DNA of 63,874 bases, the filler included, from Kipferlia bialata (Eukaryota), in assembly GCA_003568945.1 (NCBI GenBank). It is 6 parts of 6 records of this genome, joined end to end, with 100 filler letters (N's around TTAATTAATTAA, not from the genome) between each part and the next. Parts side by side here need not be neighbours in the genome. Positions count along the whole stretch, not along the records: positions 10,680 to 21,250 come from BDIP01001404.1; positions 21,351 to 31,915 come from BDIP01001405.1; positions 32,016 to 42,573 come from BDIP01001406.1; 3 more parts are not named here. One strand, written 5' to 3'. Positions 10,784 through 42,520 of the stretch are shown in pieces; within the stretch, counting starts at the first letter, position 1, and each line of letters opens with the position of its first letter. The notes beneath the pieces were generated by a model. It saw only the letters and a list, made by a program, of their open reading frames with translations, was not told the DNA's origin and searched no databases. The position numbers were made by a program, and so were the translations under genes.

Positions 10784-13700
10784 GAAGTCCCTCCACGCCC
10801 TGTCCTTCCTCACTGGTAGGGAGCTGGAGGACCTGGTGCACCACCCTCGGGCAAGGTATCACCTCTCTCTCTGTGTCTCTCTCTCTCAACCCTTTCTCAT
10901 CCCCCCCCCCCATTCCACCTAATGCACTCTCTCTGCAATACTCATTATATTCACCCCAGAGCATAACCTCTTAATATATCTCTGGCTAAATCTTCTAATG
11001 TCCCTCTAGAGCCCGATGTATGTCTCTCTCTCTCTGTCTTCTCTCTACCCCATCTCTCTCTCTCTCCTTCTATCTACTTACCCCAGGGCATGCATGGACC
11101 TGTGCCTAGATGAGTACATGTACATATCTCTCTCTCTCTCTCGGTATATATAGTATCCACTATGTGTACATTCTTACCCCAGGGCCTGTATGGACCTGTG
11201 CCTGGATGAGTGTGTCACTGGTGCCACAGAGGCAGACATAGTGTCAGGAGCGGTGGCAGCATACTGTACGTATATTGTATAAAGTACTGATAGAGAGTAT
11301 TCAGTAATGTGTAAACACATGTGCATACGTTTGTGACAGGGGCAACACAGGCAGACATAGTGTCAGGGGTTGCACCATACTGTGTATGTGTATTAACAAC
11401 AGGACCGTGAATACCATATGCATATATTTACAAAGTGTTCCCCTCCCCAACCCCAGTGCAGGTGTCCTTCCTCTATCCATTGATGAATAGGGGATTCAGT
11501 TATTATCAGTTACAGTCATTTACTATATATGTGTCCCCCTATAACCCCAGTACAGGTCTCCTTCCTCTCCCTGCCCCAGACAAGGGTGCTGGCACTGCTA
11601 AACGCATTCCTCAGGGCTAAGGTACCGTTGTAGCATGTATTATTGTTCTTAGTGACAGTTTGTCAGAAGGACTAGACCTTGTTATTTCTCTTTCCTTGTC
11701 TTGTTCATTTGTCTTCCCGACTCCCAGCCACACACCCCTGCCTCCCCCCCTTTTCGTTTGTATATCCTATCTGAGTTTGTATTGTACATATGTAAACTAT
11801 TCGTCACTGCCTCTAATCTTCAGCCCCGCCCCCCTGTGTCCCCCCTCTACATTGTTGGTATACCTATCAGCTTGTGTTTCATCTTCATCTTGAACAATGC
11901 ATTACCTCTCACCACTAGCCCCGCCCCCCTGCCTCCCCCCTGTACATTGCAATGTCTTTGTCACATACCATTATATTTCATCCATCACCTCTACTTACCT
12001 TACTGCTACTTACTGCCAGCCACGCCCCCCTGCCTCCCCCCTGTACATTGTTGTGAGACACCTACTGCTCCTATTGGACAGGGGGACAGTGCTGGAGGGA
12101 GGGGCAGACACCGTGTCCTTTCTGGTAGAAGCTCTGTACGTGCATTGTATATAGTATATATATAGTGGTATATATATATAGTGGCTATGTGTCAGTGACA
12201 GTGCTGGAGGGAGGGGCAGACACGGTGTCATTTCTAGTGGAGGCACTGTACGTAGGAAACGTGTATATAGTATATCTATCTATATGTATATATATATATA
12301 TATATGTGTGTGGATAGATAGTATGTCATATACTGCTGGATGGAGGGGCAGACACGGTATCCTTTTTAGTAGAGGCATTGTACGTGCATTGTCTATACAA
12401 ATATGTGTGTATATACATGCATAGCATGTACTGCTGGAGGGAGGGGCAGAGATGGTGTCATTCCTAGTGGAGGCACTGTACGTATCTATAGTTGTGTTAG
12501 AGTATTCGTATTCATGTATGTGTCTTCCCTGCTTTGTGTATGTTCCTCTGACTTGCTGACCACCTCCTCTGTCGACTGTCTCTCTCCCCCTCTCGGTTAT
12601 CTATACTTACCCTATATTAGAGTCTTACTTCAGCACCACCCCCTCTGGTAAGTGTGCCTGTCTGTCTCTCTCTCCCTCTCTCTCTATTTCTATATATATA
12701 CTTACTAATCCCCTAGGCTAGAATCTAGCTTTAGCACCACCCCCTCTGGCGAGTGTGCCTGTCTGGCTGTGCTGGGTGAGATATGCACTCTGTCACCAGA
12801 GGCCAGGAGGGAGGCATACACACACCCTCACGGTGAGTGCANNNNNNNNNNNNNNNNNNNNNNNNNNNNNNNNNNNNNNNNNNNNNNNNNNNNNNNNNNT
12901 ATATATATATATATAGAGAGAGAGAGATGAGTGTACTCTGTCACCAGAGGCCAGAAGGGAGGCGTATACCCACCCACACGGTATGGATAGTATATGTATA
13001 TATTTGTTGACATTGAGAGAGAGAGATTCATATATGACAGTATAATACTAATAATACTGTGTATACTCACCCATAGGTCGTCAGCTCCTTGCCAAGGTTG
13101 CAGGTCAGATGGGTGACTACACCCTGCCTGTATTATGTGCATCCCTGCACTTCATGAGCCATGGGTCGAGGGAGGGGTCGCACTTCCATAGCATGTTACA
13201 CACTGAGGTATGTATATATATGTAGTATAAGTATTGTATATACTGTATTCATGAGCCATGGATCTAGGGAGGGATCACACTTCCACTCAATGCTGCATAC
13301 TGAGGTAAAAACATATATACTATATAAGTAGTGTATATACTCTATCCATTGATCCATGGGTCCAGGGAGGGGTCGCACTTCCACTCAATGCTGCATACAG
13401 AGGTATATATATATGTATGCAGTACTATGTGTGATATATATACTGTATACTTCATGAGCCATGGGTCGAGGGAGGGGTCGCACTTCCATAGCATGTTACA
13501 TACTGAGGTATATGGTGTGATTACCTGAATATTACATATTTTTTGTCATGTGTTCATATGCATATTGTTTCCTCATCACCAGGAGAGTGTGGCCCTATGA
13601 CCCTCTCTCTCTCTCTCTGTAGTTCTTTAGTGAATCATTGTGATACATGTTACATGTATTCAATATATAGCTTATCCTTAGGAGAGTGTGGCCAGACTGG

Positions 13701-40130: not shown

Positions 40131-42520
40131 CTCTCTCTCTCTCTCTCTTTACACCTAGGCCTCCCTCATCTCCTTCATTGCCATGACCACCGGGGAGAAC
40201 AACCAGGGCAGGATAGTGTGGTCATCCATCCAGAACAGGTATTAATTGCATCATTCATTATATGCATTGGGTATAGACTCCACTATTAGTATCATTAATA
40301 CTATATATTATCTTCTACGTATTGTACAACCAGGGCAGGATAGTGTGGTCATCAATTCAGAACAGGTACTTATGTGGAATTCACATATGATAACACATGT
40401 GTATTGTCTCTATTCCGTATGTGTATTCCCTGACCCCCCAGGCTCTATGTCTACAGGATGGGTCGAGTTGTTATTGTAATTTATATTTCATGTATATGGA
40501 CTACCATGTATCTACATACCCTGACCCCCAGGCTCTCTCTCTCTATATATATATGTGTGTGTATTCTCTGACCCCCCAGGCTCTATGTCTACAGGATGGG
40601 TCGCAAGAACAACCTCATCCACAACGGGGGGTTCAACCTGCCAGGTAAAGACACTAATACTCTCTCTATCTATACACTGCTATAGATATTAATGTTATAG
40701 CTCATCCACAACGGAGGGTTCAACCTGCCAGGTATACATTGCATATTGTTTTACAATTTTGAGTACGAGAACTCTCTTAGTCGTTCAGAATATCATATTT
40801 CACTATGACAATGTGTATTATGTGTCTATCGTATGTCCTCTCTCCCTCTCACCCCCCAGACAACCCCATTGTGGTGGTTGTTGTGCCCCAGTTCAACTTC
40901 CTGGTGGTTCAGACAACGCAGCAGGTGGTGTATCCATTTATCTTACTTCTAGGGCATCCCCGTCCTGAGCCTCTTCTCTCTCTTCTTTTTTCTATTACTA
41001 TCCCCCCCTATCTCTCTCTCACCCTCCCTCTATCTCTCTCTTTCAAACTCTCTTGCTGCCCATTTAACCCTCAGGACATCACCATCTATGAGCTGCGGGA
41101 CAGTCACATTGTGGCCAACATCAACATACCAGGCAACGAGATACAGGTTGGTATTCTAGTGGAATACGCGCTGCACTTGAGACAACTTCATGCCATATAT
41201 AGTTAGCCTCTCTCTCTCTCTCTCTCTCTCCCTCTATAGACTTCTATACACCTCACCCCAGGGTGTTGCTGTCTCCAACCACTACATGTGTGTCATCCTG
41301 GCCTCCCACTCTGTGCTGGTATTCAGTCTGCAGACACTGGACCTGGTGGCATGTGTCAAGGTATGTATATGTATATACACACACACACACACACACATAC
41401 ACACACATATAAATATGTGTGTGTATAAGGTAGAACGTATACAATGGTATTCAGTCTGCAGACACTGGATTTGGTGGCATTTGTCAAGGTATAAGTTCAT
41501 ATATACACACGTGTAAGTATGTACATCAAGTGCTCTCATTGATATAGTGTTTTGTTTGGTTTCTCTGACCCCCAGCTTGTCACAAAGGGTGTAGAGGAGG
41601 TGTCCCAGGACTTCATTGCACAGCACTACTCGTTCCTAGACACAGGTATGCGTATGTGTGTATGTATGTATGTATGTGTGTGGAGGTGTTCTATAGTGTA
41701 TCTCTTTCTCTCTCCATATAGTCTTCCTCTATCTCATGAGAATGACACTCTTATGTTCTTTGACCTCTCTCTCTCTCTCTCTCTCTCTTTCTTCCCCCCC
41801 TATCTCACTCCCTCTGTATACTCTGACTCCGGCTGCCTAGCTATATCCGATGAGGGTGTTAACATCATGTTCTTTGATCATTCTATTACTCTACAGTGTA
41901 AAGGTATACTCACCATAGGATGTCTTGCCATCTCCGATGAGAATGGTACCCTCATGTTCTTTGATCTGAGTGGTGTCATCAACTATGGCAACTACCTCTT
42001 GGACACCTATGCCATACAGATGTCTGCACAGCTTCAGTCAAACAGGTACGTTAGCAAAGTATCTAGTGTAGTATATTTGTGTGTAGTGTGTATAGTGTGT
42101 ATAGATTATTTTGTATCCAGTATATATAATGAATAATTTGTATCTAGTATGTATAATGTATATAGTATACCTGTTGGACTATTTCCGTATATCCCCTTAT
42201 CCCCAGGGCCAGCACCTATGACAATATACCTATAACTATAGATCTCTTTGTATAAGTGTTCTTCAACACATGCTTATCCCCAGGTCCAGCACCTATGACA
42301 ATGTGCCCCACCTGCACACAGGGGTGGAGCCAGGCCAGGTACTCACAGTGTACCTATGAGTGATTGTACTGTATCTATACGATTCACGTGGTACTATTTT
42401 TCAAGTAAGCACAGTATATATGAGAAATGTATTCCATCTGTGTATTGTCATCATTTGTCTTCTGCTGCCGTCTCTCTCTCTCTTTCTCCTCCATTCCATC
42501 CCTCTCACCCTTCAGGAGAC
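32318..42520 (+). CDS. EF-hand + WD40 repeat protein, WDR49/WDR64/EFCAB8-like (partial)
   Basis: EF-hand-like ELYQEMDPxNDQAVTAEDFTSLM, followed by WD repeats: GHTSAVATV; IVSSGTDSRLTIWE; AVTGSYDGELKxWDL; KAHSKSITCLAFNQRLKIIISGSADRTVKLWNPF; SVDASGLIHVWNL. Confidence 0.75.

Follow-up and report, generated by a model that had tools for sequence, protein, structure and literature searches.

Mutually exclusive tandem exons are copies under coding constraint, while nested or recursive splicing involves extra splice sites inside introns. Nearer in layout to the arrangement described here are the "mirages" of amphioxus, which are known from Adh3, the globins BflGb6 and BflGb9, TnC and PGBD5 (available parts of PMC3087553 and PMC3902484), and human F7, in which, according to the accessible part of PMC1557585, only the most upstream donor is used through first-come scanning. 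New introns have been proposed to arise by internal gene duplication (Rogers; Gao and Lynch 2009, both as cited in the available part of PMC3087553). Here we analyzed a window of 63,874 nucleotides (nt), the whole stretch of DNA under study, that joins six scaffolds of about 10.5 kb each from the free-living protist Kipferlia bialata (assembly GCA_003568945.1). In six genes of this window, exons are preceded in the adjacent intron by copies of their first part together with the acceptor (head echoes) and followed by copies of their last part together with the donor (tail echoes), so that the introns carry decoy splice sites. A reading made from the sequence alone had presented this layout as one for which no description as a genome-wide system was known; the mirages and the repeat in intron 7 (IVS7) of F7 are single-gene precedents, as far as the accessible parts of PMC3087553 and PMC1557585 go. 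The strongest signal is the codon-position bias of the differences between echoes and exons. We favor the view, at a probability of roughly 0.55, that the echoes once served as working exon ends, were captured from highly divergent alleles of the same gene and are tolerated by a splicing mode resembling exon definition.

Exon-end copies in six genes

Gene models were built with the outermost splice sites and are open throughout. They comprise 130 exons, 101 in the six echo-bearing genes and 29 in a control gene on scaffold 5 that was obtained with a small predictor trained on the six models. The models on scaffolds 2, 3 and 6 rest on open frames, the comparison with RNA concerns scaffold 4, and all counts are confined to the six scaffolds.

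10785..21089, plus strand: scaffold 2 gene, 22 exons, open frame of 738 amino acids with the outermost sites
21519..31907, plus strand: scaffold 3 gene, 19 exons, open frame of 709 amino acids, protein rich in S, T and V
32319..42532, plus strand: scaffold 4 gene, 34 exons, open frame of 877 amino acids, fitted by an RNA contig
53604..55787, plus strand: CNOT9/Rcd1-like gene, last 7 exons, 10 echoes
57561..61037, minus strand: Dbr1-like gene (lariat debranching enzyme), 11 exons in the model and 6 counted echoes
61219..63387, minus strand: gene piece, 8 exons, 10 echoes
44431..49456, minus strand: control coiled-coil gene on scaffold 5, 29 exons, no echo

Each exon was aligned against all introns of its own gene on both strands at a threshold score of at least 26. 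The resulting 176 matches consisted of 71 heads, 68 tails, 21 eroded copies in adjacent introns (13 upstream and 8 downstream) and 16 distant or opposite-strand matches that scored only 26-27, which is the noise level (780 pairs of an exon and a foreign intron gave 11 matches at the same threshold). All 71 heads were located in the upstream intron and all 68 tails in the downstream intron, and all 139 of these copies were in the adjacent intron, on the same strand and in direct orientation. Among the 176 matches no head was found downstream, no tail upstream and no copy of a whole exon, in agreement with the sequence-only reading. Since any tandem junction that spans a splice site yields this polarity, no special system is needed to produce it.

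Of the 190 exon ends in the six genes, 103 had echoes (acceptors, 54 of 95; donors, 49 of 95), a smaller extent than the "most exons" initially claimed. The scaffold 2 gene carried 43 echoes (at 15 of its 21 acceptors and 14 of its 21 donors), the scaffold 3 gene 50 (12 of 18 each) and the scaffold 4 gene 40 (18 of 33 acceptors, 13 of 33 donors). Between one and four copies were detected per side, compared with the one to six heads and one to five tails reported before; six head copies are visible by eye upstream of the Dbr1-like exon 59840-59727, three of which form near-perfect tandem units of about 120 nt. Measured from the 5th percentile to the maximum, heads spanned about 19-55 nt and tails about 22-73 nt (previously 15-50 and 15-60 nt). 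Representative arrays are as follows.

32457..32662, plus strand: three heads copied from exon 32746-32812; the intron has no decoy donor
39040..39288, plus strand: three tail echoes of exon 38865-38972, each terminating at a GT
53927..54049, plus strand: two head echoes of CNOT9 exon 54097-54180 (53927-53969 and 54015-54049)
54242..54393, plus strand: two tail echoes of the same CNOT9 exon (54242-54288 and 54347-54393)
180..291, plus strand: two tail echoes of exon 28-115 on scaffold 1

For the CNOT9 exon both tails and the heads near 53927 and 54015 had been predicted correctly, while a third head near 53862 is visible as a copy of about 13 nt below our threshold. Nearly all differences in the two tail echoes are synonymous, one AGA/CGG switch among them.

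The unit period of about 100-110 nt is made up of an echo, which covers at most 60-72% of the exon, and a spacer with a median of 69 nt. Spacers match a whole plain intron in length, with 6 of 154 under 40 nt. The medians of echo-bearing introns range from 190 to 410 nt as opposed to about 70 nt for plain introns, and a large share of intron length in these genes probably stems from echoes. The claim that the copies keep their splice sites was well founded, the projected dinucleotide being retained in 67 of 77 heads (AG) and 64 of 72 tails (GT), with 10 echoes outside this assessment and several of the missing cases displaced by a small indel. Every head lacks 28 nt or more of its exon and every tail 19 nt or more, and no heads leaving less than 25 nt were seen (6.7 expected), as would be the case if homology within the exon is needed. 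The idea that an insertion divided one old exon into a head and a tail echo was considered and rejected as a rule (junctions coincide in 7 of 31 exons, 4.8 expected, p 0.18).

Echoes are common but patchy between genes. None were found in the 28 introns of the control gene (median 73.5 nt, GC content 0.44, 4% microsatellite; echo-bearing genes: GC content 0.36-0.41, 9-14% microsatellite). Seven further predicted gene pieces had tail echoes in two cases, none in four, and whole-exon repeats in one.

Codon signature of the echoes

For the codon counts 159 of the 176 matches were kept, the 16 distant or opposite-strand matches and one weak internal match being dropped. Echoes and exons differed at 130 of 3701 zero-fold degenerate (0-fold) sites (3.5%) and at 281 of 1026 four-fold degenerate (4-fold) sites (27%), a ratio of 0.13. 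Bootstrapping over the 103 exon ends placed this ratio at 0.10-0.165; it was 0.03-0.17 in each of the six genes and 0.11-0.12 when scaffolds 2 and 3 were left out. Differences at codon positions 1, 2 and 3 amounted to 4.6, 3.0 and 21.5%, respectively, and in the CNOT9-like gene they affected 2 of 257 0-fold and 17 of 68 4-fold sites. Simulated neutral echoes of a constrained exon, passed through the same detector under seven age models with 20 runs each, gave a mean ratio of 0.54-0.55 with a minimum of 0.45, which ruled out detection bias as the source of the signal. The ratio of a copy that is dead from birth does not fall below about 0.5 because the copy changes everywhere and the exon only at silent sites. 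The observed 0.13 compared with about 0.55 in simulation thus indicates that, during most of the time they evolved apart from the exon, the echoes coded for protein and that decay set in only recently, and it is very likely that they were once coding.

The changes private to each lineage follow the same pattern. In triplets of an exon and two of its echoes, echo-private changes were found at 105 of 896 4-fold sites (11.7%) and 94 of 3200 0-fold sites (2.9%), while exon-private changes occupied 54 of 448 (12%) and 11 of 1600 (0.7%). Echo lineages therefore changed about four times more at 4-fold than at 0-fold sites, and arithmetic from these counts suggests coding constraint over roughly 80% of their separate history. 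Among 49 codons with at least two differences the amino acid was kept in 14, including two three-letter switches between serine codons, where 1.3% would be expected. Identity in the flanks beside the decoy sites is only slightly over chance, which indicates that the units are deeply diverged wherever the protein imposes no constraint.

A second, recent phase of echo evolution is neutral decay, as evident from changes at 0-fold sites that are biased from GC to AT (71:22, compared with 101:88 at 4-fold sites; p 0.00025), a 0-fold difference between echoes (0.061) about double that between echo and exon (0.035), frame-breaking indels (9 of 13 non-triplet) and stops (3 in 140 replacements). The 4-fold difference between echoes (0.272) equals that between echo and exon (0.274) and is flat with distance from the exon. 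The shape of the triplets fits a star (observed 15; 9-24 for a star and 2-12 for a ladder in a crude simulation).

Splice-site choice and origin of the echoes

The run designated X2, which was taken as RNA by guess, behaves as spliced RNA and was available as contigs, which cannot show minor or rare splice forms, instead of raw reads. Its record 9 fits the scaffold 4 model at a constant offset of 175 in all eight listed pieces and spans 26 junctions and 34 echoes, 30 of the latter with an intact splice site. At all 40 covered positions where an echo differs, the contig shows the letter of the exon. In this one contig of one gene the main mRNA omits the echoes and uses the first donor and the last acceptor, which bears out the earlier expectation that the outermost sites have to be chosen. 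No RNA joint linked to a decoy was present among the 15 of 41 joints listed, a sample that is uninformative on rare forms.

Decoy sites score almost like true ones (acceptors 9.8 vs 10.6 bits, donors 8.1 vs 8.8 bits; neither difference significant), and 32 of 64 decoy donors are as strong as the true donor or stronger. Selection weakening the decoys was not seen with matrices that were trained on true sites and hence favor these. In 115 of 124 cases direct use of a decoy would introduce a stop or shift the reading frame. First-come scanning of the F7 type accounts for the donors but fails for the choice of the last acceptor, while pairing across the exon accounts for both. We infer that splicing here pairs sites across the exon in a manner similar to exon definition. 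At 55699 and 22876 the modelled acceptor, taken from open frames, is AAG and the upstream decoys are TAG, which makes the rarer type of acceptor the modelled one.

The favored reading starts from tandem copies of an exon end, half an exon or less, with its splice site in direct orientation, the polarity following from the geometry of the junction. In the one gene compared with RNA, the main mRNA keeps to the first donor and last acceptor despite equally strong decoys, probably through pairing across the exon. Both copies appear to have been under protein-coding selection for long and would thus once have resided on different chromosomes and been brought together later, since a single chromosome has room for just one working exon end unless both copies are used. 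A likely route would be out-of-register repair or exchange between homologues that pair in the conserved exon and are rejoined by microhomology in the repeat-rich intron; pairing would fall inside exons because these are the sole well-conserved islands between flanks of near random identity. The exon end of one allele would keep working and that of the other would be parked beside it. Whole-exon and cross-intron products would be purged and half-exon products would be neutral, and later re-duplication of some units in cis may have generated near-identical arrays. K-mer peaks suggest that K. bialata is diploid (available part of PMC5874029). According to the accessible part of PMC8516963, metamonads are without Ku and non-homologous end joining (NHEJ) and fornicates without Rad51A, and capture by exon-paired repair fits the absence of Ku-dependent end joining.

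Several observations weigh against this reading. We infer the allelic source, and neither a second allele nor another strain turned up: two scans of metagenomes for strains or relatives returned 178 and 469 pattern matches, none of them confirmed, and a protein search yielded K. bialata itself alone. Capture requires a synonymous divergence of about 0.27 among at least four source copies, which is at or above the highest within-species values known. The intron-sized spacer is not predicted by random breakpoints, and microsatellites are enriched at the inner breakpoint for heads (39 of 83) and hardly for tails (24 of 76; background 27%). The 0-fold difference does not rise significantly with rank (p 0.11), and the four-copy sets give little sign of recombination among copies, with conflicting splits in only one of 22. 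The DNA contigs contain one other letter in 10.4 kb, although contigs drop variants and heterozygosity is not readable from them. The RNA evidence comprises a single contig of a single gene from a run whose RNA status was guessed.

It appears improbable that the echoes are still used today, either as minority alternative exon ends or as silent donor cassettes whose sequence enters the exon by copying or recombination, with selection acting now. Such use would be in line with the low 0-fold divergence together with intact and equally strong splice sites, with replacements that are a little more conservative than under neutrality (mean BLOSUM -0.23 vs -0.53) and with rare forms concealed by contigs. 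The inner ends lack a splice motif, however, direct decoy use would be as disruptive as described above, the RNA contig carries the exon's letter at every covered differing position, and frameshifting indels and stops accumulate. If cassettes were copied one way, an exon with a single echo should be identical to it, but such echoes differ at 88 of 357 4-fold sites, and their 4-fold divergence from the exon (0.25) is similar to that of multiple echoes (0.29).

Classic mirages, in which slippage or unequal sister exchange duplicates the gene's own exon end in cis to give a copy that is nonfunctional from the outset, are clearly improbable as the sole cause, and this estimate includes a variant in which the exon runs away at silent sites and the echoes are frozen. 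This process explains polarity and unit geometry, has a known precedent (available part of PMC3087553) and would readily yield the 17 of 159 echoes that are identical to the exon as well as the near-perfect tandem units in the Dbr1-like gene. Its predicted ratio of at least 0.5 is, however, far from the observed 0.13, the echo-private branches are themselves biased toward silent sites, the triplets resemble a star and not a ladder, and in the case of the variant the flanks are not frozen.

Slightly more doubtful still is the proposal that echoes are half-lost remnants of whole tandem exon duplicates that once were mutually exclusive exons. It would explain constraint on both copies within one genome, spacers of plain-intron length and the weak correlation of head and tail numbers per exon (rho 0.27; within-gene p 0.04). 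On the other hand, no whole-exon copy is present among the matches even though the whole state would have lived about four times longer than the decayed one, and no remnant lies on the wrong side although half of random truncations would leave one there. With present use unsupported, and with the whole-exon pairs and wrong-side remnants predicted by mutually exclusive exons absent, capture from divergent alleles remains.

The sequence-only reading had proposed "Russian doll" splicing, with inner decoy pairs removed first and the outer pair last, and as a working system this is very unlikely. Decoys do retain AG and GT and score like true sites, and 18 of the 72 echo-bearing introns have equal numbers of both kinds, but 41 contain one kind only and 13 unequal numbers. 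With these 54 introns lacking matched decoys nested splicing is not the general route; in addition, the number of tails in an intron shows no correlation with the number of heads (rho 0.03), and the codon bias would be left unexplained.

It is scarcely credible that the arrays are an assembly artefact in which exon ends of two haplotypes were stitched in tandem through microsatellites, even though the synonymous bias resembles alleles, all five gaps in modelled introns fall into echo-bearing ones and the DNA run X1 may be from the same sample as the window, since separately assembled X1 contigs cross exon, spacer and echo gap-free and with at most one other letter, the eight DNA pieces listed bridge 15 of the 40 scaffold 4 echoes, X1 depth is 372-440 in echo-rich and echo-poor parts alike, junctions have only a few letters in common and 7 of 159 echoes are within 80 nt of a gap.

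12842, 19197, 22731, 28174 and 35493: assembly gaps in modelled, echo-bearing introns, all five such gaps

The head echoes at 32457..32662, for example, are contained in X1 record 1 (32200-32665) with no other letters. The arrays are almost certainly real, as the sequence-only reading had supposed; they may be longer than assembled or differ between homologues, and echoes are perhaps partly responsible for the gaps.

Among the proteins encoded in the window, that of scaffold 2 belongs to no family we recognized and has a coiled-coil-like end, while that of scaffold 4 looks WD40-like by eye, with no Pfam match for the single 34-amino-acid piece searched. One exon of the CNOT9-like gene matches Rcd1 (E 0.032, under Pfam's cut-off), and the Dbr1-like exon 59840-59727 matches solved Dbr1 chains (E 0.0027). 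The Dbr1-like gene has one GC donor after 58673. The neighboring minus-strand piece (61219..63387) may be HAT-like, a label that is a guess. Long C and G runs lie between these two genes at 61100-61200 where the reading frame breaks, possibly a mis-join of the scaffold. Scaffold 1 carries two related genes in tandem (1050-3030 and 4046-6200), one with a single tail echo at 1731 and the other with none. In the LRR gene at 9168-10113 (minus strand), units of an 84-nt exon and an intron of about 66 nt are repeated whole and apparently coding; whole-exon duplication does survive where the protein is repetitive.

Significance and comparison with known systems

A broader proposal, which we regard as tentative, is that K. 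bialata keeps exchanging exon ends between strongly diverged alleles, with the replaced ends staying behind in its introns. If this were true, the introns would be a genome-wide archive of extinct alleles with each exon a mosaic of heads and tails, intron growth would follow incidentally from repair on a homologous template in a cell that lacks NHEJ, and genetic exchange as well as extreme diversity would be directly documented in sequence for a group without observed sex. The arrays would be tolerated by a reduced spliceosome that is obliged to define exons; K. bialata has 87 of 174 surveyed spliceosomal proteins (available part of PMC6679479). With many equally strong decoys on both sides and plain introns near 70 nt, these genes amount to a natural experiment on how splice sites are chosen. 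In eukaryotes with short introns, pairing of splice sites is generally taken to occur across the intron (available part of PMC2397502), which would wreck the echo-bearing genes.

In the literature covered, from which supplements were outside the scope, no such repeats were found for Kipferlia or any protist and none at comparable density elsewhere, and the main text of PMC5874029 does not contain "duplicat" or "microsatellite". A synonymous bias in mirages was likewise not found in a scope that left aside the original Adh paper (PMC117041) and Gao and Lynch.

The human F7 repeat, a 37-bp variable number tandem repeat in IVS7, is similar in placing decoy donors behind the true donor with the most upstream one used, and different in being one locus with donors only and identical repeats (accessible part of PMC1557585). 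Activation of the decoys once the true site is removed is a further mark of the F7 type. Internal gene duplication shares small intragenic tandem duplications with splice signals, as cited in the available part of PMC3087553, whereas in Kipferlia no new intron or exon is gained and existing introns lengthen from about 70 to 190-410 nt. Mutually exclusive exons differ by the whole-exon copies of which there are 0 among 176 matches here, and nested or recursive splicing by its paired sites, decoy donors and acceptors being matched in 18 of 72 introns.

The closest resemblance is to the mirages of amphioxus. According to the available parts of PMC3087553 and PMC3902484, these are likewise tandem duplications over the intron/exon border, both 5' and 3', many of which keep AG or GT, regular splicing is undisturbed (here in one gene, by RNA contig), and unit sizes are similar (150-160 bp in the globins). 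Kipferlia echoes are direct tandem copies spanning the border, with flank identity above chance but weak. The mirage type also includes copy numbers that vary between haplotypes or cells; the contigs compared here came from one sample. Mirages, as described there, affect few genes in contrast to 103 of 190 exon ends in six protist genes, and their units are minisatellite-like, 81-100% alike and subject to concerted evolution. Kipferlia spacers are barely alignable and echoes are no closer to one another than to the exon, so that concerted homogenization is not seen in the class as a whole, only in a minority such as the Dbr1-like array. The strong codon bias observed here is unmentioned in the available parts of the two mirage papers, and capture from divergent alleles would be a testable origin for mirages in general through the same codon test on amphioxus copies. 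The layout itself is already known; what is new here is the coding signature in spliced-out echoes and their density in a short-intron protist.

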